From the NCBI GenBank assembly GCA_963848135.1, contig CAWKCK010000018.1, positions 572,938-636,937 of the forward strand: a stretch of 64,000 bases of DNA, read 5' to 3'. The notes under the pieces were generated by a model. It was not told the origin of the DNA. It saw only the letters and a list, made by a program, of their open reading frames with translations, and searched no databases. The DNA is from an uncultured delta proteobacterium. Its GTDB lineage: Bacteria; Desulfobacterota; Desulfobacteria; Desulfobacterales; SG8-13. Of the stretch, positions 13,060 through 38,831 are shown piece after piece. A program made the position numbers and the translations under genes. Positions within the stretch are counted from its first letter, which is position 1; each line of letters starts with the position of its first letter.

Positions 13060-13267
13060 TCTCCCCTCCATTTTTACTGATGACCACAAGAAAAAGAGTA
13101 GCAGCTGGTTTTATAGAGAAATAGGCGCCGAATAGCATACCTCAACTGTGAATCCTCATTGCAAATAGAAAAGGCAGACCACAACATCTTGTGTTTACCA
13201 TTTTGTTGCCAAGATAGTGATACATTGAGAGTAACTGGTAAAAACCAGATTCGTCAAGGCTCGTACC

Positions 13268-13410
13268 TTCTTGCCATAACCGTAACTCACAGTCATTACG
13301 CTAAGTGTAACGATACGGTCTGGCAATCTAAGGAAATCGACTATTTAATAGCTCAGAGATCGTAGCAGAGGGCGTGAGTCGGTCAGATCTTGTGTTTTGT
13401 TAGAGGTATA
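13268..13410. repeat. ~140-bp intergenic repeat, copy R2 (most complete)
   Basis: TTCTTGCCA..ACGATACGGTCTGGC..ATAGCTCAGAGATCGTAGCAGA..GCGTGAGTCGGTCAGA..TTTTGTT. Confidence 0.8.
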
Positions 13411-13435
13411 TGCAATTTCATTGGTTTGAGAATCA

Positions 13436-15109
13436 TCATTTCTTTTTATCAGAATTTACTAAATCTTCCTCAATTTTTACGGCCACTATAGTTATGTCAT
13501 CTTCTATTGCAGAATCTTTTTGGAATTGATCCAGGGCAGAAAAGACTGCTTCGATTATTTCCTTAGCTTTTTTAACGGAATTTTTGCGTATGATTTCATA
13601 TAGTCGCTCTTTGCCAAAAATCTCTCCAGCTCGATTGTGCGCCTCCCAGACTCCGTCAGTGCTTAGAACAATGATTTGACCCTTAGCAAGATCCAGTTTT
13701 TCGTTTAACTCATATCGCCAGTTTTTGTCCACACCGAGTGCGATACCATTGCCTTTCAAATCTTCGAATGTATTTGTAGCAGGGTCGTAAAAGATGCCAG
13801 GATCATGCCCCGCACGTACCCACTGTAAACTTTGTTTTTCGGGATCAACGGTTAGATAAAACAGTGTCATAAACTGCCCCGAATCCTCGACATCGCGAAC
13901 CAGTTGATAATTTACATCGGAGATTATTTGTGCGGTGCTACCCGGAAGAGATAAGCGTTGCCGCAATGAAGAACGGGCCGTAGCCATAAGCAGAGCGGAA
14001 GGAATGCCATGGCCTGAAACATCACCAATAGCCACGCCTATCTTTTTATTCTTGGCCTCATCAATTGTAATAAAATCGTAATAATCGCCACCGGTTTCAT
14101 CACAATATATGCTTCTGCCTGCTATATCCAATCCTTCGATTTTCAGATTACCTTTTGGTAAAAGATTCTGTTGGACTTCCATTGCCAGGTCAAGTGATTG
14201 GCGCATCCTGTCTCGTTCTATGAGGCCATCGGTCATTTCGTTAATTACATCGCCGACATATCCGATTTCATCGTTGGAAGTAACTTTAACTCGCGAACCA
14301 AACTTGCCAATCGTTACTTGTTTTAAAACGACCACCATTGCATCCAAGGATTTTTTCAAGTTCAGAGCCACAATCAGGACCAACCCACCACCAATAGCCA
14401 CAACAACCGGAATTAGCATCCACAAACCGGTAGTAAGCATTTCAAGTGAATCGATCGCATTGCGACCGGAAATGGCAACACGATATAGGCTGGTAAGGAT
14501 CGCTAAAAAAGGTATTAGATTGATGGCTACAAAGACCGCAAATAGTCGTACAGTAAGATTGATCCGCCGGGTGCCCTTAACATCGTATAATTTCCCTCTG
14601 GGGAATACATAGGGTGCCAGGTACGATTGTAAAATCCGTTCAAGCAAAAAGAAAGCTATCGTGGTTGATACCAGACCAGTCAATAATGCATCAAACCGGT
14701 TCATACTTATTTCTTGCCACGAAAGACCAAAGTTACGTTCAAAGGCGGCAAAGGTTATCCCTGCCAGAATCCAAGCGGCCATATCCATACCAATAATAAC
14801 AAACGGTTCGTTTAATAATCTTTTTTTAACCCTTGATTCGAGTTCAGAGGATATTGGGGCGTCGGACCACAGTTTTTCATAATAGCCACGAATAGGCCAC
14901 TCGTACAAAATAATAAACATAAAAAATAAAGCAAAGATGGGACCAAAATAGTTGGCAGTACGAATGTGAAACTCAACATATTTATCCGACTGATAGCCTC
15001 GTAAGATAAACTCGTAGATTACATAGAGCAATCCAGCTCCAATGGCTGTTGCCAATAGATTGGCCGTAAACATGGCGTTTTTCAGGCAAAAAAGACGAAA
15101 CCGTGTCAT
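13436..15109 (-). CDS. Membrane HAMP-domain SpoIIE/PP2C (RsbU-like) phosphatase
   Basis: TM helices; HAMP (NDEIG); GGDYYD, GDVSGHG, AGH, TDG and DDIT motifs. Confidence 0.92.
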   Translation of the reverse strand: MTRFRLFCLKNAMFTANLLATAIGAGLLYVIYEFILRGYQSDKYVEFHIRTANYFGPIFALFFMFIILYEWPIRGYYEKLWSDAPISSELESRVKKRLLNEPFVIIGMDMAAWILAGITFAAFERNFGLSWQEISMNRFDALLTGLVSTTIAFFLLERILQSYLAPYVFPRGKLYDVKGTRRINLTVRLFAVFVAINLIPFLAILTSLYRVAISGRNAIDSLEMLTTGLWMLIPVVVAIGGGLVLIVALNLKKSLDAMVVVLKQVTIGKFGSRVKVTSNDEIGYVGDVINEMTDGLIERDRMRQSLDLAMEVQQNLLPKGNLKIEGLDIAGRSIYCDETGGDYYDFITIDEAKNKKIGVAIGDVSGHGIPSALLMATARSSLRQRLSLPGSTAQIISDVNYQLVRDVEDSGQFMTLFYLTVDPEKQSLQWVRAGHDPGIFYDPATNTFEDLKGNGIALGVDKNWRYELNEKLDLAKGQIIVLSTDGVWEAHNRAGEIFGKERLYEIIRKNSVKKAKEIIEAVFSALDQFQKDSAIEDDITIVAVKIEEDLVNSDKKK

Positions 15110-15264
15110 TTTTCCAATAGGGCCTTTATCTGTAGAGTGTGAATCGACAGGATTGGGTTGGAATCAAATTTTAGTTTGATTCAAGAACTATTTAAAGCAG
15201 AAATCAATCGGAATGCTGAATTAGTAGTGATAATATACCCAAAAAACAACAATTTTTAAGTTTA

Positions 15265-15303
15265 TATATTGAGACTATATGGATCTTCTGGGGTGGGTCA
15301 ATA
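15265..15303. repeat. 37-bp direct repeat, copy 1 (copy 2 at ~16429-16465)
   Basis: tattgagactata.gga.ctt.tggggtgggtcaata with 3 mismatches; both copies read TTGACC-N16-TATAGT on the - strand. Confidence 0.85.
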
Positions 15304-15377
15304 CGTAGAACTGGGCCGTCACGATCAGTACGACGCAGGAACGGCGAGCCGGTTCGGTCTCAAGTGGTGTGTTATAT
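15302..15377 (-). other. attC-like integron recombination site
   Basis: ATATAAC directly after the GNAT stop; N5 spacers; bottom-strand stem actgggccg/cggtctcaagt with two bulged bases; ends ...tctacGT. Confidence 0.7.
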
Positions 15378-15379
15378 GT

Positions 15380-16400
15380 TTAGATCATTTTTTTCATAAT
15401 TAAATCATTTTGCAATTCATTCCCCATTCTGAATGGATGCCGTCCTGCTTTTTTAAATCTCATTTTTTTATAGAATGATATTGCATCTATATTTTTTTCC
15501 CACACACCTAACCATACATAATTCTTCTTCATCTCTTTCGCTAACTGAAGTGAAAATTTAACTAGCTTTTTACCTAGTCCTTTTCCTTTGAAGGTCTAGC
15601 AGACCGCAGCTTTTATCGATCGGCCGCGAGTAAATGCGACGGAAGGCCAGGTTCGATTTTGAACGAATGATGAAGAAGGCCGGCACCTGATGGAGCGTAT
15701 AGAGCCTTTTAAAATCCAGATAGCCGCGATCCATGATATAAATCGAACCGATTTCAGCCTCCAGCCGGTCAAGGATGTTTACCTCATGCACCTTGCCATC
15801 GGTAATGGCAATCATAGAGGGAATATTGCCGCGCAAGTCAAGCAGGGTATGTAACTTGATTGCCGCTTTTGTTTTCCGAAATTGCGCCCATGGGAATACG
15901 GAAAGACATAGATCTATGATGGTCGCATCCAAAGCATAGATGGTCTCTTGCAATTGCAGACCAAAATCTTCACCGGCATAGAGTCTGCGGGCTTCATCGA
16001 TCAGAATTTTGGCAAAGTCTCTGTAAATGCGCCAGTCACGTTTTTCATTCGCATCTGCTAATGTGCTTTTTGAGACTTTGCTGCGAATGCCCATGTGATA
16101 AATCTTGATATATATTCTTTCCATTTCAATTGAATCAGTATCATTGATATCTGATTGAGCTGGTGCATCATTGATCTTTAGATATCCAGCCAATTCATTC
16201 TCTGCATACAAAAAGTAGAATAAACTGTTTTTATTATTTAATTCCGCTAATAGCTTTTTCTTATTGAACGCTTCTTGAAGATAAGAATCTATAGTTTCTT
16301 GACTATTCATCGTTCGAAAAGTCTCATCATAGGTTTCGTACCCTATGGCTTGTAATTTATCCAATTCAGTTATCGAGCAAGGCCGTATATTGATATACAT
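15380..16400 (-). pseudogene. PaiA-like GNAT acetyltransferase interrupted by an IS4 transposase fragment
   Basis: N-part ends MERIYIK; C-part TFKGKGLGK..VWLGVWEKN..FYKK..MI* lies at 15380-15597. Confidence 0.88.
15598..16102 (-). mobile_element. 505-bp internal IS4-family transposase fragment, no ends
   Basis: YHMGIRSKVSKSTLADANE..ALDAT..KLHTLLD..MDRGY. Confidence 0.85.
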
Positions 16401-16576
16401 AAACCGATTTCTCCCAGAATCTGTGATATATTGAGACTATAAGGAACTTGTGGGGTGGGTCAATAATTTTGCTTGCTTGATAATCATTTAAAAGGCACCT
16501 CCTAATCGCAAATGACACAGCGATTCGTTATAAAGGGTTAACCCCAATCATAACCCTATAACGAAGGAGGTGCCCT

Positions 16577-17596
16577 ATGGAACTGTACGCCGGTCTGGAT
16601 CTTCATTCAAGAAATACCTACATCGGAATCATGGACGATGCATTGAACCGTGTCTTCAAAAAACGTGTATCCAATGACCTTGACCAAATTCTTCATACTT
16701 TAAAACCCTTCAAAAAACGATTAAAGGGATTTGTTGTAGAGTCCACCTACAACTGGTACTGGCTCGTAGATGGCCTCATGGATGCGAGATATGGCTCTGC
16801 ACACTTGGCCAACCCGTCGGCAATCAAACAATACGAAGGGCTAAAGTACAGTGACGATCAGCATGACGCCTTTTTTCTGGCCCAACTTCTCATACTCGGT
16901 ATTTTGCCCGAAGGCTACATTTACCCAAAGCAACATCGCCCGGTGCGGGACCTGGCACGCAAACGGATGTTTTTAGTCCGGCACAAGACCGCGAACATCT
17001 TGAGCCTGCAATCGCTCATTCAAAGATGCTGTGCAGTAAAAATAAGCACCAGTGACATCCGAAAGATAAACGTCGAAGCATTGGAAAGGTGGCTAAAAGA
17101 AGAGTACCTGATTTTCTCTGCTCAAACCAGTTTGGATACAATCAACTTTCTGAAGCAGAAGATTAAACATTTAGAGAAGGCGATCATACAGAGAGTCAAA
17201 CTCAATAAAGGGTTCAGGCAACTGCTGACAATACCCGGTATCGGTAAAATTATGGCTATGACTATCATGCTGGAAGTGGGTGACATCAATCGTTTTCCAA
17301 AGGTCGGCAATTTTGCTTCCTACTGTCGGTGCGTGCCATCCAAGCGGTTGTCCGACGGAAAAAGCAAGGGGTGTGGCAATCGTAAAAACGGCAATCGCTA
17401 CCTGAGCTGGGCCCTCACTGAAGCCGCTCAATTGGGCCGTCGGTATAATGAACAGTTTAGACGATACTATAACCGCAAGGTTGCTCAGGCCAATACCAGC
17501 CTGGCGACCAAAGCGCTGGGCAACAAACTGGCCCGCATCTGCTACTATATCATGAGAGATCAGGTTCCCTTTCGTGAGGAGCTTCTTGCGCAATAG
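16577..17596 (+). CDS. IS110-family recombinase/transposase
   Basis: GLDLH, VEST and KYSDDQHDA (DEDD motif); TIPGIG; SDGK; GNRYL. Confidence 0.95.
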   Translation: MELYAGLDLHSRNTYIGIMDDALNRVFKKRVSNDLDQILHTLKPFKKRLKGFVVESTYNWYWLVDGLMDARYGSAHLANPSAIKQYEGLKYSDDQHDAFFLAQLLILGILPEGYIYPKQHRPVRDLARKRMFLVRHKTANILSLQSLIQRCCAVKISTSDIRKINVEALERWLKEEYLIFSAQTSLDTINFLKQKIKHLEKAIIQRVKLNKGFRQLLTIPGIGKIMAMTIMLEVGDINRFPKVGNFASYCRCVPSKRLSDGKSKGCGNRKNGNRYLSWALTEAAQLGRRYNEQFRRYYNRKVAQANTSLATKALGNKLARICYYIMRDQVPFREELLAQ

Positions 17597-17900
17597 TTTG
17601 GGACTGCAGCGGTGATCCTTTGCTATTGGTGGTTAAAATCCCTATTGCTTGGTTGGCCACCGCTGCTCTCCCTACAAAATAGATTCAGGCGGGTGTCCGC
17701 TTTTTCGATCTGCCCTTGTCATAAGCTCGCAATGGCTGGCCCGAAAGGAGCCCTATCTCTTGTGACAACCCAATTGGCTTTGACAAGGTACCGATTTTTT
17801 CTGGGGTCTGGTTTCGGACCAGGGGCTTTAGATATTCTCTCTTTGGCCTTGATCCTGATGGGTGCCTGTTAGCAGATTAAGTGACGCTGCATAGCAAACA
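17597..17900 (+). ncRNA. Putative seekRNA / bridge-RNA region
   Basis: Stem gcagcggtg/caccgctgc (17606-17666) encloses target-matching segments; donor-like ATGGGTG at 17858. Confidence 0.55.
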
Positions 17901-18116
17901 AAAAGAAATTTCGGGAGCAGGTAAAAAAAATTGGACGAACGTCGAGCTGAATTTTGTTCCTGCAAAAAATATACCCCTTTTGCGATGGCGTGGTGTTTTT
18001 TGTTGACGGAAGCCTTTTAATGGGTGCCACAGGCACAACTATCGGAAATCATACCACCTGTTACGATATGATCTGGCTATCACAGTCTTTTCAATGATTC
18101 CTGAACTTTCCTTAGA

Positions 18117-19974
18117 GGCAAGTAGCGCGGAGGAGTCTCACCCCTACGCCCTCCAAGAACCGTACGTGACAGTCTCCCGTCATACGGCTCCTACTGTCCA
18201 GCCGAAGGCCGGAAGCCAAATCCCCAGGATGCGAGCAGTCTGGGTTCCCGACGGGCTATACGTCCCAACCAATGGGCCGCCCTTCGCCAATGACCTCGCA
18301 GTCTTTTGTATTTCCGCATGGCCCAACGTACCAATGCATTTTGAATCTGACGTAAGATGGGATAAAGTGCTGTTTTGCGAAATTTGCCATAGTAATTCAA
18401 CCAACCTCTAACCACGGGGTTGATTCGTTTGGCAATATCCTCCAAAGAAGCGGAACTCCACAATTGCAATTTCCACCCTCTTATTTTTGCACCCATCTCT
18501 TTGACGGCTGATTTGCTGACCGCTGGTGTAAAACCCACAAAGCAATTCCGCCCCTTACACAAACGAGCACGAAATTCATAGCCGAGAAAATCAAAACTCT
18601 CGTGCATGTAACTTCCCGGGCGTGTGGCGTTCTTACAATAGACAATCTTCGTCTTCTGCGGACTCAATTTTAACTTACACCGCGCCAGCCGCAGTTCAAT
18701 GGCTCTCAACATAAATTTTGCTTGAAATTCCGTACGGCAATGCACAATGATGTCATCCGCATACCTCGCAAATACAGCAATCGGATGGCTTACTCTCATC
18801 CATTCATCAAACACATGGTGAAGAAAAATATTGGCCAGCAAGGGGCTAATTACACCCCCTTGGGGTGTGCCCTTTTCTCTTTCGATTAGGCTGCCATCTG
18901 CCAGCTGTGCTGGAGCTTTTAGCCACCTCTCTATGTAGAGCAATATCCACCTGCTATTCGTATGTTTCCTCACTGCATGTAACATCAGATTGTGGTCAAT
19001 TTCATCGAAAAACCCTTGGATGTCTAAATCCAACACCCAGCCATACCTCCAGCACCGCTTGCGAACCACGGCCACCGCATCAAGTGCCGATTTGCCGGTT
19101 ATATAACCATAAGAGTCCGCATGAAATATCGGTGCCACTTGTGGCTCCAGATACATCTTGACCACCATTTGCGCCACACGGTCCGAGACAGCTGGTATAC
19201 CCAACCTTCTGGACCGCCCATCACGCTTGGGAATATCTACCGTACGAACTGGCGGTGGGAAATAGCTTCCCGAGGACATGCGATTCCAGACTTTATAAAG
19301 ATTGTCTTTGAGATCGACCTCAAAGTCTTCAATCGACTGCCCATCGACGCCCGCCGCACCGCGGTTTGCTTTTACCCGACAAAACGCCTCCCAAACGGCA
19401 TGCTTGGAAATACTATACGGCTTTGTTTTAGTCACCGGTTCCTCCCATCTCTGGTTGACCTTGTCACTAAAACCGGACAGCACAACCCCTTCGCTCCATC
19501 TGCATTACACAGACTTCATCACTACTTCGGGTTGTTCCGCCCCCGTGTCCCGCATCGGTACTCTCACGCTTGTGGGTCCGCCACTTGCGTTTCTCCCTTA
19601 ACATCGAGACGACAGGTTCCCACGTTCCATACAAAAGCCTGAATCAAGGTCATGCCATCTTTATGCCGGACGCCGCCCAGACAGTAAGCAGGTGGCCTCT
19701 GGGCTTATCCTGGGATTCTGCTAGTACCCCAGTTTTGACGTCATCTCTGCCTTTTCGACACCTCAGCAATGGTTCGCTCGCGCTCATCTCCTTGATTCAT
19801 ACCTGATCCCGTCAAGCGAGACCTTTTCCTTAACGCTCACCACCCTGGCTCTTTACCAGCGCAGCTTAAGGTGGTTTGAAACCTGCTCCTGCAAGCCGGT
19901 TCCGAGGGGCCTACCCTCATCTTTTGTACAGTTACACACACTCTATTTATATTTAAAGTGCGCTCGTGGCACAC
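18117..19974 (-). mobile_element. Group II intron (RmInt1-like, probably bacterial class D)
   Basis: 5' GTGTGC at 19974; domain V GAGCCGTATGACGGGAGACTGTCACGTACGGTTC; domain VI ends ...CTACTTGCC. Confidence 0.92.
18191..19435 (-). CDS. ltrA: Group II intron reverse transcriptase/maturase without an endonuclease domain
   Basis: GAAGVDG, GTPQGGVISPLLANI, RYADD, FDFLG and GWLNYY motifs; GTG start after GAGG (ORF open to 19483). Confidence 0.93.
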   Translation of the reverse strand: MTKTKPYSISKHAVWEAFCRVKANRGAAGVDGQSIEDFEVDLKDNLYKVWNRMSSGSYFPPPVRTVDIPKRDGRSRRLGIPAVSDRVAQMVVKMYLEPQVAPIFHADSYGYITGKSALDAVAVVRKRCWRYGWVLDLDIQGFFDEIDHNLMLHAVRKHTNSRWILLYIERWLKAPAQLADGSLIEREKGTPQGGVISPLLANIFLHHVFDEWMRVSHPIAVFARYADDIIVHCRTEFQAKFMLRAIELRLARCKLKLSPQKTKIVYCKNATRPGSYMHESFDFLGYEFRARLCKGRNCFVGFTPAVSKSAVKEMGAKIRGWKLQLWSSASLEDIAKRINPVVRGWLNYYGKFRKTALYPILRQIQNALVRWAMRKYKRLRGHWRRAAHWLGRIARREPRLLASWGFGFRPSAGQ

Positions 19975-20160
19975 TAGCAGCAAGCGTGAGCCGGTCAGAC
20001 CTTATGTTTTGTTTACAGTATCTGGGTTTTCAGGGGATCGATTCTATACAGATATTATTCGGCTAAATTAATTGTGAGACTAAAATCACCAAGAATTGTA
20101 TTACCAACGACAGAAGCAAATCCAGCACTAGCTTTGCCTATACTACTAATGATATTTCTA

Positions 20161-21550: not shown

Positions 21551-21744
21551 TGATAATCATCTAAAAGGCACCTCCCAATCGCAAAGGGTATTGCGATTCG
21601 TTATAAAGGGTTAATCCCAAACATAAACCCTATAACGCAGAAGGTGCCTCATGGAACTGTATGCCGGTCTGGATCTTCATTCAAGAAATACGTACATCGG
21701 AATCATGGATGATGCATTTAACCGTGTCTTCAAAAAACGTGTGG
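21551..21744 (+). mobile_element. Truncated second IS1111 copy: left end plus ~31 codons
   Basis: Homologous to 16478-16670; MELYAGLDLH starts at 21651. Confidence 0.88.
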
Positions 21745-21847
21745 CCAATAGCGTAACAATTTGTAATTTAGGCAAATATGTAAATATTGTCTGACTATCT
21801 CAAGCGGATCGACCAGATGATAGCTCAAAAATCATAGCAAATAGAAA
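21745..21847. repeat. ~140-bp intergenic repeat, copy R4 (its TTCTTG lies at 21547-21552)
   Basis: CCAATAGC..GTCTGACTATCTCAAG..ATAGCTCAAAAATCATAGCAAATAGAAAAA; CCA to TAGCA distance is 90 nt. Confidence 0.7.
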
Positions 21848-35013: not shown

Positions 35014-35090
35014 TTATTTATTTCAATTTTTAGAATAGAGTCAAGAAAAATGAATATGCTGGTAAAAGAATCATTCTTTTCGGTTGAGCT

Positions 35091-35198
35091 TTCTTGCCAA
35101 TAGACTAATTATCGAAAATTGCGTCAAGTATCACGATACCGTCTGGCTAAATTCAGGAAATTCGCTGATTGATAGATGCCGAAAAATAGCAGATAATT
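35091..35198. repeat. ~140-bp intergenic repeat, copy R6, cut by IS481
   Basis: TTCTTGCCAATAG..ACGATACCGTCTGGC..AGGAAAT..TAGCAGA. Confidence 0.75.
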
Positions 35199-35374
35199 TG
35201 TAGTAATTCAGACTTGATCTGACAGTTACCGATTTTGAGGCGGTGTCTGTCAGCTCAAAATCAGGCTACAAACTTTTCTTGCCACTAGCGGTAACAAAAT
35301 GAGAATTGACCAATAGAGGGTAACCGGTCATTATCTGTCTGATTTTTCTGCAACTTTCAGAAAGGAGGCAGAAA

Positions 35375-36541
35375 ATGGCCAGCGTTGATATTTTATACTC
35401 AAACCCTAACCACGTCCACGGTTGCCACCCGCAGAGCCGCCAAAGTCATTTAGAATCTATTGATTTAACCTCACAGCACCAAGTCACCCAGGCCGCACTA
35501 AACTCGTTTTATCCATCAAGTGCAAGCCGGACCGATAGCCGCGGCGTCACCCTGGGCAAGGTTTTTCGCCGGCTTAATCGCTGCAGCTACCCGGGTAAAC
35601 AGCCACTGACCGAATGGATACTTTATAAATACCGGCGCGGCTGCAAGCCGGTAACCCTGGCCACCAATTGCGGCTTTATTGTGCCCTTTTTGGTGTTTAT
35701 CGGCCAAATGGGCAAGACCGGTGTCGAGCAGATCAACAAGAAAGATCTGGAAGCCTACATCGAACGCCAGCAAGACCGCGGTCTAAAACCGCTGACCATT
35801 GATGGCACTTTAAGGAGCATCTACGCTTTTATCGGCTATCTGGTTGAAGCTGATCTTTTGCCAGCCGATCTGCTGGTAAAAAAAATCCGGATCCAGGTGC
35901 CCAAGCCGCTGCCCCGGGCGATGGATCCGATCGATAGCCAGCGTCTTTTGGCCACGATTGACAACATCCGTGACCGGTCCCTGATCCTGTTGCTGCTTCG
36001 AACCGGAATGCGCATCGGCGAGCTTTTAAACACCCGTGTCGATGATCTCAATCTGGTCGACCAGAAGATCTTCATTATGATCGGAGAGAAAAATCGTCTG
36101 GGCCGCGCGGTGTGTATCAGCGATGATGCCTGCAGCGCTTTAAAGGCTTGGCTGCGCATCCGCGATAGCAGTCAGAAGTATTTGTTCTATGGGCTAAGGC
36201 GTCAACCGTTGGGGTATTCGCGTTCGCGTGACATACTGCGATCCTATCTTAAAAAGGCCGGCCTTGCTCACAAAGGATATACGTTGCATTGCCTGCGGCA
36301 CACCTTTGCCACCGATCTTTTAAATGCCGGCATGCGCCTTGAGTGTCTGCAGCAGTTGCTGGGGCACAGCAGCCTGGAGATGACCCTACGCTATGCCCGG
36401 CTGACCGATAAAACCCGGGAAGAAGAATACTATAAAGCCATGTCACGCATCGAAAAAGGAGCCGTCGATGAACATCACCGATTCGATCATCAACTACCGC
36501 CGATATTTGAAAAGACGCAACTGTTCAGCCAGCACGGTTAG
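35375..36541 (+). CDS. Tyrosine recombinase A
   Basis: TGMRIGE, K, HCLRH, LGH..RY: full catalytic set. Confidence 0.92.
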   Translation: MASVDILYSNPNHVHGCHPQSRQSHLESIDLTSQHQVTQAALNSFYPSSASRTDSRGVTLGKVFRRLNRCSYPGKQPLTEWILYKYRRGCKPVTLATNCGFIVPFLVFIGQMGKTGVEQINKKDLEAYIERQQDRGLKPLTIDGTLRSIYAFIGYLVEADLLPADLLVKKIRIQVPKPLPRAMDPIDSQRLLATIDNIRDRSLILLLLRTGMRIGELLNTRVDDLNLVDQKIFIMIGEKNRLGRAVCISDDACSALKAWLRIRDSSQKYLFYGLRRQPLGYSRSRDILRSYLKKAGLAHKGYTLHCLRHTFATDLLNAGMRLECLQQLLGHSSLEMTLRYARLTDKTREEEYYKAMSRIEKGAVDEHHRFDHQLPPIFEKTQLFSQHG

Positions 36542-37355
36542 AAGTTATTTGAGCCACCTGAAGCAGTTAATCATCTGGCTCGATGAGCCCATCGAGCTCG
36601 TCGGTCATAAAAAAATTACTTCCTATGTCGATTATCTTCTCGGCAATAAACTGGCGCCGAAGACCATCAACTGCCACCTGGGAAGCATGCACAGCTTTTA
36701 CAGTTATCTAGTCGATCAAGAAGAACTTCAGATCACCAATCCGATCAAAAAGGGCTACCACCTGCGCCTGGCCCGGCCTTTGCCAAAACACCTGCAGGAT
36801 GAGCAGGTGGCCAGTTTGTTCAGCATAATAAAAAGTCGTCGCGATCGGGCCATGTTCATGCTGATGCTGCGCTGCGGTCTAAGGGTGAAAGAAGTGGCCA
36901 ACCTGACTATCGATGCCGTCGACTGGCGCCGCAGACGCTTGTATGTCTACCATGGCAAAGGCGATAAGGACCGGGTCGTCTACATCAGTGATGACACCTA
37001 CGCTGCGCTGGTTGCCTATGTAAAACAACGATTGGGCAGTCGCGTGAAGAAGATCTTTCTGGTAGAAAAAGGCGTCTACAAGAGCAAGCCCTTATCTACA
37101 CGCGGTATCCGCAAGCGTATAGAGTACTACTCGAAAAAGTCGGGTGTAAACGTGTCCTGCCATCAGCTCAGGCATACGATGGCCACCCAGCTGCTCAACG
37201 CCGATGCGGATCTGGTGACTATACAGGATCTTTTAGGCCATACCCGCATCAAGACCACCCAGCGCTATTGCCGGGTGTGCAACCTGAAGGTTCAACGTGA
37301 TTACTTTAAGGCGATGGAGGTGGTGATGAGACGCGCTGTAGGTTCGTCCCCCTAA
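36468..37355 (+). CDS. Tyrosine recombinase B
   Basis: CGLRVKE, GKGDKDR, HQLRH, LGH..RY. Confidence 0.92.
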   Translation: MNITDSIINYRRYLKRRNCSASTVRSYLSHLKQLIIWLDEPIELVGHKKITSYVDYLLGNKLAPKTINCHLGSMHSFYSYLVDQEELQITNPIKKGYHLRLARPLPKHLQDEQVASLFSIIKSRRDRAMFMLMLRCGLRVKEVANLTIDAVDWRRRRLYVYHGKGDKDRVVYISDDTYAALVAYVKQRLGSRVKKIFLVEKGVYKSKPLSTRGIRKRIEYYSKKSGVNVSCHQLRHTMATQLLNADADLVTIQDLLGHTRIKTTQRYCRVCNLKVQRDYFKAMEVVMRRAVGSSP

Positions 37356-37444
37356 ATTCTCTTGACAAAGGCACAATTATGATAAATCATAGCAATACTT
37401 AACCTACTAATATAAATTGAAAAATCAGAATTTGTTACCGCTAG

Positions 37445-38462
37445 CTTGCCATATATTCTTCCCATCTTCAAGTGTTTCCATCGGTGTTCGTCCGCAACAC
37501 ATCTTACCTTGATGTGTTCGCTCGTGGTTGTATTTAAATAGCCAATCATCCAGATCAGCCTGTAGCGTTTCGATATCCCGGTATATTTTCTTGCGGAATG
37601 TCACCTGATAAAAATCCTGCAGAATGGTCTTATGAAAGCGCTCACAGATTCCGTTGGTTTGCGGAGATCTGACCTTGGTTTTAGTGTGGTCGATATCATT
37701 GATGGCCAGATACAGCTGGTAATCATGGGTTTCGGCTTTGCCGCAGTATTCTGTGCCTCTGTCCGTCAGGATTCGAAGTAAAGGCAACTGGTGCTCTTCA
37801 TAGAAGGGTAAAACCCGATCGTTTAGCAGATCGGCGGCAGTTATAGGTGTCTTGGTGGTGTAAAGGTTGGCAAAGCCCACCTTGGCATAGGTGTCGATAA
37901 AAGTCTGTTGATAGATCCGTCCTACGCCCTTTAGTGTACCCACGTAGAATGTATCTTGCGAACCCAAATAGCCCGGATGGGCGGTCTCGATTTCACCGCA
38001 CGCCTCATTGTCCTGCTTTTTGCGCTCAAGGGCCTGGATCTGGCTCTCGGTGAGGATCAGCTTCTCCTTGGCCATCTTTTCCTCAAGTGCCCGTAGTCGA
38101 TCCTTAAAACGGCCCAACCGATGCCGTAGCCAGACACAGCGGACACCGCTGGGGGAAATAAAAACGCCTTTTTTTCTCAGCTCGTTGCTGGCCCGGACCT
38201 GGCCGTGGGCAGGTTCTTCGACGGCATATTCAACAACGGCCGCTTCAGTCTGTTCATCGATCCGATTCTTTAAATTGGGACGGCGGCGATCTTTGCTGAT
38301 CAGAGCGTCTACACCACCCTCGTCAACGGCGGCTTTGTATCGGTAAAACGTATCTCTGGACAGCCCCATAATACGACAGGCTTAGGATACATTACCCAGT
38401 TCTTCGGCCAAATTTAAAAGTCCAATCTTGTGTTTGATGATGGATTTGTTACCATGCAGCAT
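37445..38462 (-). pseudogene. IS481 transposase with a nonsense codon near the N-terminus and a split C-terminus
   Basis: MLHGNKSIIKHKIGLL..NVS*ACRIMG; QDTF, TDRGTEY and TNGICERFH motifs. Confidence 0.88.
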
Positions 38463-38636
38463 GAGGGTTACCTCCTGTGGTTTTGAATGGTTTTGGTTTG
38501 GCACCTACCATCAAAACCGGTAACCCTCACTTTTTCAAGTGCGGTGTCAGATTAGGTCTGAACTAATTCATATTATCAGCCACTGGAGTCTCTGTCCCCA
38601 ATCTCAATTGCCTGCAAGACTAAAAGATGCTTCGTC

Positions 38637-38831
38637 CTAATCTGCCCTGAGATCGGAAAATTCCTTTTGTGCTTCTAGGTTATCGCAGAACTGATCAAAA
38701 TGGAAAAACATACAGTGCTCACCGTATGATGATTTGCCATAGAAGTTGCAATGTTTTTGTGCGTTTTTTTCGGTCACATTACAAACAGAAATCATCTTTG
38801 TTTCACAGAAATTTTTTCTGGAGATCTGCAT
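38637..38831 (-). CDS. Small Cys-rich hypothetical protein
   Basis: 64 aa ORF with several Cys; GGAGG RBS nearby; co-oriented with neighbours. Confidence 0.4.
   Translation of the reverse strand: MQISRKNFCETKMISVCNVTEKNAQKHCNFYGKSSYGEHCMFFHFDQFCDNLEAQKEFSDLRAD

Follow-up and report, generated by a model that had tools for sequence, protein, structure and literature searches.

An insertion-sequence-sized element with two overlapping tyrosine recombinase genes and a 7-bp core that is constant within each lineage

The element, its genes and its host

The stretch of DNA analysed here (the window) comprises 64,000 nucleotides of contig CAWKCK010000018.1 (GenBank assembly GCA_963848135.1), from an uncultured delta proteobacterium of the Desulfobacterales whose genome is assembled as 6.03 Mb in 18 contigs. 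At window positions 35285-37444, between two copies of the 7-mer CTTGCCA, lies a 2160-bp unit that can be read directly in the sequence. It encodes two tyrosine recombinases, YrA and YrB, and sits within an IS481-family insertion sequence (IS). The features of the locus are these:

35205..38575 (limits approximate), minus strand: host IS481-family copy, cut by the element in its last transposase codons (NCBIfam IS481, 256 bits against a cut-off of 224)
35278..35284, plus strand: left core copy CTTGCCA, the putative attL-side overlap; this 7-mer borders all 5 full genome copies
35285..35298, plus strand: left terminal inverted repeat CTAGCGGTAACAAA, 14 bp, from the sequence
35306..35334, plus strand: promoter-like TTGACC-17-CATTAT reading into yrA, 9/12 consensus matches
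35338..35348, plus strand: left subterminal inverted repeat TCTGATTTTTC, ~53 nt inside the end, forming a perfect 11-bp inverted pair with 37419-37429
35375..36541, plus strand: yrA, 388-residue Xer-like tyrosine recombinase with an extra N-terminal ~80 residues (open reading frame (ORF), Pfam, NCBIfam, motifs)
36468..37355, plus strand: yrB, 295-residue Xer-like tyrosine recombinase (ORF, Pfam, NCBIfam, motifs)
37362..37390, plus strand: promoter-like TTGACA-17-AATCAT just past the yrB stop, facing the right end, 10/12 consensus matches
37419..37429, plus strand: right subterminal inverted repeat GAAAAATCAGA, one base (37430) from the right terminal repeat
37431..37444, plus strand: right terminal inverted repeat TTTGTTACCGCTAG, 14 bp, from the sequence
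37445..37451, plus strand: right core copy CTTGCCA, the putative attR-side overlap; it borders copies, and contig matches end there

The terminal repeats CTAGCGGTAACAAA and TTTGTTACCGCTAG are exact reverse complements over 14 bp. Perfect 14-bp inverted pairs at a spacing of 1900-2700 bp occur once in the real window, and that one pair carries a 7-bp direct repeat; 20 shuffles gave two such pairs in total, neither with a direct repeat, and the analytic expectation for both features together is ~1e-5 per window. Element-matching contigs from four sequencing runs cease to match at 35276/35278 on the left and 37451 on the right, the sequence outside being different, and the span that they match is the element plus its two 7-mers. 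In length (below ~2.5 kb), in carrying mobility genes only, and in its terminal inverted repeats, short direct repeat and several copies, the unit answers to the operational description of an insertion sequence. A preliminary description of this DNA had proposed the 2160-bp unit with its perfect 14-bp ends and flanking CTTGCCA, the two overlapping recombinases with intact catalytic residues, and the restoration of the IS481 transposase end when the unit is taken out. The first of these we could confirm in the sequence, the second by ORFs, Pfam and motifs, and the third from the frame given below.

The layout of both ends is kept throughout 67 related elements, whose survey is described below. 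From the left, the order is terminal repeat (family consensus ctatACGtaacAAa), a −35-like TTGAC, a −10-like CATnAT, the subterminal repeat (kept family-wide as CTGnTTTTTCTa), a strong ribosome-binding site and the start of yrA, with the TTGAC and CATnAT blocks conserved over the 67 left ends. Reading inward from the right, the terminal repeat is followed after 1-2 bases by the inverted subterminal repeat and then by TTGACA with a −10-like hexamer 17 bases on; here a GTCAAG block is retained in the 67 right ends. These promoter-like sites are consensus matches with a presumed function, and in a circular form the right-end site would read over the joint towards yrA. One further consensus match, at 9/12, spans window 35279-35306 and combines TTGCCA of the core with GAGAAT 16 bases into the element.

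The yrA and yrB genes overlap by 74 nt on the same strand. Both products match the Pfam family Phage_integrase (PF00589; E 4e-38 for YrA, 1.5e-37 for YrB), and their catalytic residues can be assigned by motif as R213, K239, H305, R308, H331 and Y340 in YrA and as R139, H232, R235, H258 and Y267 in YrB. With this domain and these residues, both belong to the simple Xer-like tyrosine recombinase superfamily. YrB has SAM-like domains above cut-off (PF13495, 44.2 bits against 27; PF02899, 43.1 against 22.3); the corresponding PF13495 match of YrA, at 23 bits, falls below the cut-off of 27. Catalytic motifs can be recognised in 67 of 67 YrA-like frames and in 63 of 67 YrB-like frames, and by this measure both enzymes look active. 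The two proteins are paralogues with 30% identity to each other, and columns of the YrB family alignment are on average 70% identical. No DDE, HUH or serine enzyme was found among the ORFs and Pfam matches inside the 2.1-kb unit.

For both proteins the nearest NCBIfam models are XerA, XerC and XerD, all well under their cut-offs. We considered and rejected a XerC/XerD dimer resolvase, given scores of 138.9 bits for YrA and 188.7 for YrB against a XerC cut-off of 335 and five copies inside inverted repeats; the genome's other Xer-like genes lie at C2:111423-112277 and C4:263282-264154 (contigs are numbered with a C). An integron integrase was rejected on the model TIGR02249, which gives 70.6 bits (YrA) and 106.8 bits (YrB) against a cut-off of 265. 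The nearest solved structure is archaeal XerA 4a8e (107 bits to YrB, 102 to YrA), followed by IntI4 2a3v (80 bits to YrB), XerA 5hxy (79 and 82 bits) and XerD (72 and 63 bits). Among the plasmids of PLSDB there was no YrA match at E ≤1e-20, and the YrB matches were generic Xer-like genes only, at ~30% identity.

The insertion has altered the end of its host gene. With the unit and one 7-mer removed in silico the IS481 frame ends in ...DGKNIWQEKFVA and a stop codon, while with the insert in place it reads ...GKNIWQASGNKF before the stop. A second lesion, an in-frame TAA after ...ELGNVS near the transposase start (~38382-38384, minus strand), is independent of the insertion, and this IS481 copy is therefore broken in two ways. 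Its paralogues on C10 and at C18:478 kb, ~83% alike, are uninterrupted at the corresponding place and have a single 7-mer there, CTCGTCA. Furthermore, one contig of an environmental RNA library joins 35277 to 37445 at 90% likeness, with 7 letters fitting both sides: here the IS481 copy has no insert and CTTGCCA stands only once, the evidence for such an empty site being this single contig. Coverage of the element in RNA library X17 is no evidence of its transcription. Both ends of the IS481 copy give sub-threshold matches to the Rfam family psRNA2, at 35176-35226 (minus strand) and 38465-38668 (plus strand), with 23 and 40 bits against a gathering score of 65; these probably reflect IS-end sequence within that Rfam family.

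Copies, relatives and the constant 7-mer

A second copy of the element, at C1:235047-237206, is 100% identical over 2160 bp and lies in an unrelated place. Three further copies make up a second subfamily (C18:549344-551458, C17:1219889-1222001 and C5:47149-49261), which shares ~68% DNA identity with the first and 97-99% among its own members, and which ends in a different 15-bp inverted repeat, CTGTACGACATAAAA. There is also a 131-bp left-end remnant at C18:441843-441973, with CTTGCCA on its left side. The same 7-mer stands on both sides of 5/5 full copies, in five unrelated contexts and in two subfamilies with different ends. It occurs 911 times in the genome, counting both strands, and so targets are plentiful. 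Given the identical 2160-bp copies at unrelated places, the cut IS481 gene, the uninterrupted paralogues and the empty-site contig, we conclude that the element moved recently, in support of the past mobility first proposed for it.

To collect relatives we surveyed 301 genomes of the same order (155 genera) for YrA relatives at E ≤1e-40, and then, more widely, the contigs of one genome per species. In the order, a YrA relative is found patchily, in 24 of the 301 genomes and 21 of the 155 genera. A locus was taken as resolved by script where it had 14-bp inverted ends with ≤3 mismatches and a 7-bp direct repeat with ≤1 mismatch, as 20 of 30 order loci did (lengths 2108-2335 bp). In the wider survey 547 of 597 pattern-matched stretches encode YrA relatives; among the best 80 of these 547 loci, 52 pass the script (2088-2539 bp) and five more, of a 3283-bp form, were resolved by eye. 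The script-resolved loci of both surveys number 72 (2088-2539 bp), and after removal of duplicates 67 distinct elements remain, all of the same build of two genes between 14-bp ends that are bordered by a 7-bp direct repeat. Of the 52 script-resolved loci of the wider survey, all but 6 have the same 7-mer on both sides, and those 6 show one mismatch each. At least 6970 proteins match YrA at E ≤1e-30, a number that includes generic Xer-like proteins. The family is thus a common one, with its members mainly in Desulfobacterota assemblies.

The preliminary description had left two possibilities for the 7-mer: that the element needs CTTGCCA as its core, or that it duplicates its target. It had suggested collecting the flanks of other copies, and the surveys provide these. 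We find ~27 different 7-mers, each tied to an element lineage and recurring in unrelated genomes. The most frequent among the loci of the wider survey are CTTGCCA (12) and CTTCCTG (11), each from several assemblies, followed by GTAGGTG (5) and CACCTAC (5). Genomes with several copies of one lineage have one 7-mer throughout (CTTCCTG at 3/3, CTTGCCA at 3/3, CACCTAC at 5/5 and, in genome G278, CGGCTAT at 2/2), and three genomes that carry two lineages each (G287, G041 and G285) have two different 7-mers. Because the 7-mer is constant within a lineage in any context, yet differs between lineages of one genome, CTTGCCA is a fixed, element-borne core, as expected of a crossover (overlap) sequence that the element carries. 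Of the two earlier possibilities the fixed core stands, then, and the variable target duplication does not. On a tree of 63 elements, built from YrA and YrB, the cores are clade-specific, with CTTGCCA in at least 4 clades interleaved with other cores, and we take cores therefore to be inherited and sometimes switched.

Some cores are reverse-complemented relative to the genes, between ends that are the same or similar. Thus GTAGGTG (loci L077, L080, L086, L098 and L134) corresponds to CACCTAC (L135 and its copies), and ATAGCCG (L070) to CGGCTAT (loci of G278 and G025). It follows that an asymmetric core can sit either way between symmetric ends.

In composition, cores have C at position 1 in 77% of cases and T at position 2 in 66%. 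Target flanks differ among copies with the same core, and over 65 distinct sites there is a weak consensus with two-fold symmetry, of 0.2-0.6 bits per position: A −11, T −9, G −5, A −4, T −3 and T −2 on the left, mirrored on the right by A +2, A +3, T +4, C +5, A +9 and T +11. The preferred sequence differs from the terminal repeats. This symmetry suggests a second DNA-binding specificity, for target arms, and with it a role for the second recombinase, although this is a guess.

The preliminary description had further proposed a minimal element of two recombinases, a proposal now supported by the 67 distinct elements of the same build, and had allowed that it might prove to be the deletion derivative of a three-gene element. 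Nearly all resolved elements have space for no more than two genes; among them a third gene occurs in one form only, the 3283-bp one, of which five copies, 99.9-100% alike and each bordered by CACCTAC, were found in one assembly (L135, L142, L145, L146 and L148). The additional ORF follows yrB and encodes 400 residues (L135:4879-6081); it matches no Pfam family above cut-off and has no recombinase domain, a weak TPR match lying below cut-off. As this form is derived, being nested among two-gene elements on the tree, we read the third ORF as a passenger.

The family is large, apparently unnamed and IS-sized, and its nearest described systems are the multi-recombinase elements RIT, Tn554 and SE/GInt. 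As set out in two papers (PMC3414803, PMC8138268), RIT elements consist of tyrosine recombinases only, with overlapping genes, several copies and inverted repeats near their ends, their mobility being inferred from distribution. In these respects, and in small size, they resemble the present family, but they have three genes in the fixed order ritA-ritB-ritC and measure ~3.5 kb, against two genes and 2.1-2.5 kb here. YrA and YrB score 125 bits against each other and at most 87 bits against the proteins of one Mesorhizobium plasmid trio, presumed to be a RIT element by its layout alone; this one comparison speaks for an independent duplication of the pair.

Tn554 is not known to have terminal inverted repeats or to make a duplication, and it uses one preferred att site. 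It shares with our element the two recombinases, both of which are needed for its transposition according to PMC3414803, and differs by a third protein, TnpC, for which the 2160-bp element has no gene. The two-gene Tn554 relatives of Actinobacteria described there have proteins of 611-828 residues, against 388 and 295 here. Gene set and ends, as described, set Tn554 itself apart. We also ruled out BIM modules (Van Houdt et al., PMC3414803), which pair one recombinase with an unrelated protein, and the IntDes subgroup (Smyshlyaev et al., PMC8138268), which has an arm-binding (AB) domain and is confined to Desulfovibrio. The family might also have been catalogued already, a possibility raised at the outset, and a search of the open full-text literature found no description of a two-recombinase element of this build; subscription papers (the 2013 RIT survey, Plasmid), ISfinder and TnCentral lie outside that scope.

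To our knowledge, bacterial insertion sequences are all driven by DDE, DEDD, HUH or serine enzymes, and a tyrosine recombinase pair differs in enzyme class from every ISfinder family that we know of. An IS-sized family that moves by such a pair would fill a gap between Xer- or integron-type recombinases and the larger RIT, Tn554 and SE elements. There is also a practical consequence: the source annotation of the family's proteins is XerD or plain tyrosine-type recombinase/integrase, and such XerD-type labels hide a mobile element and may mislead analyses of dif and Xer.

Likely route of movement and alternatives

Any account of how the element moves has to accommodate its anatomy, its several copies, the constant core, the empty sites and the conservation of the build across the family, all of which are direct observations. 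Tyrosine recombinases exchange strands across a 6-8-bp overlap between inverted arms, as do Cre, FLP, Xer and lambda Int. The most likely route, and in our estimation a probable one, is excision as a circle followed by re-integration at a matching 7-mer. The unit would be an autonomous, IS-sized element moved by its paralogous pair of Xer-like recombinases, which would recombine the directly repeated 7-bp cores and so release a circle, leaving the target with a single core. The joint of that circle would consist of 14 bp of right end, the 7-bp core and 14 bp of left end. Integration would be the reverse, at any genomic 7-mer identical to the element's own core, which would then stand on both sides. 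Target choice would rest on identity of the 7-bp overlap during strand exchange together with the weak palindromic flank preference; flanks would be constant because of this identity test during the strand swap. The core would be inherited with the element and occasionally switched. As a working guess, one enzyme would bind the element ends, leaving the subterminal repeats or the arms of the target to the other. The circle, the conservative chemistry and this division of labour between YrA and YrB are the parts that we infer. Should target choice indeed rest on an element-borne 7-bp word, the family would be a compact natural case of homology-addressed integration.

The predicted 14-7-14 joint has the geometry of loxP, FRT and dif, with inverted arms around an asymmetric spacer. 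Cre-loxP, FLP-FRT and XerCD-dif differ in recombining two full identical sites, whereas here the partner would share only the 7-bp spacer and a weak flank preference.

Several points weigh against this route or against the generality of the build. The circle joint is unseen, the sequencing data being assembled contigs (four runs) that are unable to show one. Conservative cut-and-paste alone does not account for the presence of 2-5 copies in a genome. Given the perfect symmetry of the terminal repeats, one recombinase could in principle bind both arms, which makes the need for two enzymes puzzling. The flank consensus is weak and its sites are partly non-independent, with right flanks recurring across assemblies. 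Many records are binned metagenome contigs, whose host labels outside Desulfobacterota are doubtful. Lastly, 23 of the 80 loci in the wider survey and 10 of the 30 in the order could not be matched to the build, and larger forms could hide there; the causes seen among them are contigs that stop short within the element, decay of the ends (L082) and disruption of yrB by an IS3-family insertion (L048).

The main variant of this route is a strand-biased copy-out of the kind described for SE elements, in which attL × attR recombination gives a circular copy, the donor site stays filled and the circle then integrates. It would account for 2-5 copies per genome, and replicative spread also fits the abundance of element-length contigs in metagenomes, since contigs of ~1-4 kb hold most of the best 120 YrA relatives. 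According to PMC10214605, SE/GInt elements likewise combine two catalytic tyrosine recombinases with inverted ends that are imperfect and 13-19 bp long, and they have a circular joint with a 6-bp spacer (compared with 14-7-14 predicted here) and few target sites. The same paper, however, gives them four core genes (intA, tfp, intB and srap, or ginA-D), all four needed in SEs, along with many-kb cargo and 6-mers that behave differently on the two sides and can differ; here there are two genes, as a rule no cargo, and 7-mers identical in all but 6/52. Their hosts, by that account, are Gammaproteobacteria and a few other taxa rather than mainly Desulfobacterota. The empty IS481 site in one environmental contig also speaks against a donor that stays filled, though this site was possibly never occupied. 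We therefore regard copy-out as unlikely.

It could also be that the pair is no free-living element at all, and instead the integrase module of cassette arrays that are bounded by CTTGCCA in this genome. The 7-mer begins an array repeat of ~115-130 bp, which ends near CATAGCAG and is found 77 times by nhmmer and 85 times with a covariance model, R1. These repeats form same-orientation arrays with 1-3 kb spacing and about one gene per unit, like integron cassettes. Three of the five element copies lie exactly at the CTTGCCA of such a repeat, namely 3/3 of the second subfamily and 0/2 of the first, both first-subfamily copies being outside any repeat. Moreover, when arrays of five genomes were compared for shared homology blocks of ≥150 bp, 31 blocks began within −3..+3 of the 7-mer and 35 ended within +6..+8. 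Against this, 13 of 15 other genomes of the genus have the repeat, in up to 62 copies, but the two-recombinase element occurs in 0 of these 15. Conversely, R1 finds nothing in four of the five element-carrying genomes outside the genus (G085, G073, G278 and G196), and in 75 related loci it gives 4 weak matches only, two of them at the element's right end with E up to 0.05. Since the repeat and the element occur apart, the element is independent of the arrays and the arrays of the element, and we hold an array module to be improbable.

Least credible is a true transposon making staggered 7-bp cuts at a protein-recognised word and a duplication by repair: terminal inverted repeats with a short direct repeat are the classical DDE-type signature, but the only genes are tyrosine recombinases, whose established chemistry involves no repair-dependent duplication, the unit has no DDE, HUH or serine enzyme, and 27 lineage-bound 7-mers, even in lineage pairs within one genome, would need as many protein specificities.

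Array repeats and other mobile sequences around the element

Four array repeats lie in the window, the last of them just to the left of the element:

13249-13384, 18003-18100 and 21744-21843: array repeats
35072..35203, plus strand: array repeat near the element, with its own CTTGCCA (35093-35099) unoccupied; nhmmer hit C18:608009-608140, with the IS481 copy abutting its 3' end

Elsewhere in the genome, arrays are found at C17:1212965-1247804, C17:31911-44717, C5:27765-47173 and C18:445402-456399. On a 39-kb map of C17 many genes have one repeat directly behind them; the strand opposite to the repeat profile carries 22 ORFs and the other strand 13, 4 of these 13 being in mobile elements. A search of Rfam found no family for the array repeat. 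Nor did RNAalifold find a consensus fold for either strand; some single copies form long imperfect hairpins.

Most of the block ends at +6 in the five-genome comparison belong to one IS110-family insertion sequence, and a few blocks are ordinary cassettes, among them one that spans core to core (L165:5817-7359 = L168:3000-4541). In the same five genomes there is no pile-up at the AAC of an internal RYYYAAC-like box, where an integron integrase would cut.

True integron integrases exist in two genomes of the genus, with 444 and 434 bits on TIGR02249 (cut-off 265). In one of them, G211, the integron (L066; intI at 14644-15642) has its own 147-nt GC-rich AAC...GTT repeats at 13355-13545 and 14318-14500, unrelated to the array repeat, and no R1 repeat lies within ~14 kb upstream or 35 kb downstream of intI. 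In the genome of the window itself there is only the C-terminal fragment of an integrase, and no integron integrase lies near the arrays.

A single Xer-like recombinase gene is found inside a split array repeat, as a 1060-bp unit of which the genome has four copies, each in an array (C17:1225140-1226225, C5:34416-35511, C18:551434-552523 and C17:36977-38590). A run of A's shifts its frame after ~28 codons; the 257-residue frame that follows has 26% identity to YrB. Two of the four copies also have stop codons, and the C18 copy lies directly to the right of a two-recombinase element. We considered this gene as the integrase of the arrays and rejected it: its correlation with the arrays is imperfect, as the gene is matched in 8 of 15 genus genomes, many copies have stops, and G307 yields no match in spite of its 48 repeats.

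By its habit of inserting at the word that bounds the arrays, the two-recombinase element is tied to the question of what moves cassettes in arrays that have no integron integrase. A speculative answer, to which we give a low probability, is that the CTTGCCA arrays are a second gene-cassette platform, worked by Xer-like recombinases with a 7-bp overlap in place of the integron G|TT crossover. The movers would then be the two-recombinase elements and the single recombinase nested in the array repeat; the former would be an escaped autonomous form, and its core a heritable, re-writable address.

Two other mobile sequences in the window are placed at fixed positions of the array repeat. An IS110-family insertion sequence at ~16465-18029 (transposase ORF 16577-17596, plus strand) has at least 5 genome copies, all abutting the repeat 7-mer, which there reads GGTGCCA; by this placement it behaves like the IS1111-attC group, which homes to cassette sites. 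A group II intron at ~18116-20000 (reverse transcriptase/maturase ORF 18191-19483, minus strand) appears reminiscent of group IIC-attC introns. IS1111-attC elements and group IIC-attC introns home to integron cassette sites, a habit comparable to that seen here, but they use other enzymes, and the two-recombinase pair is independent of such repeats. Homology between the intron and its other copies starts at repeat position +93, and identical blocks of 1033 bp are found at two other places.

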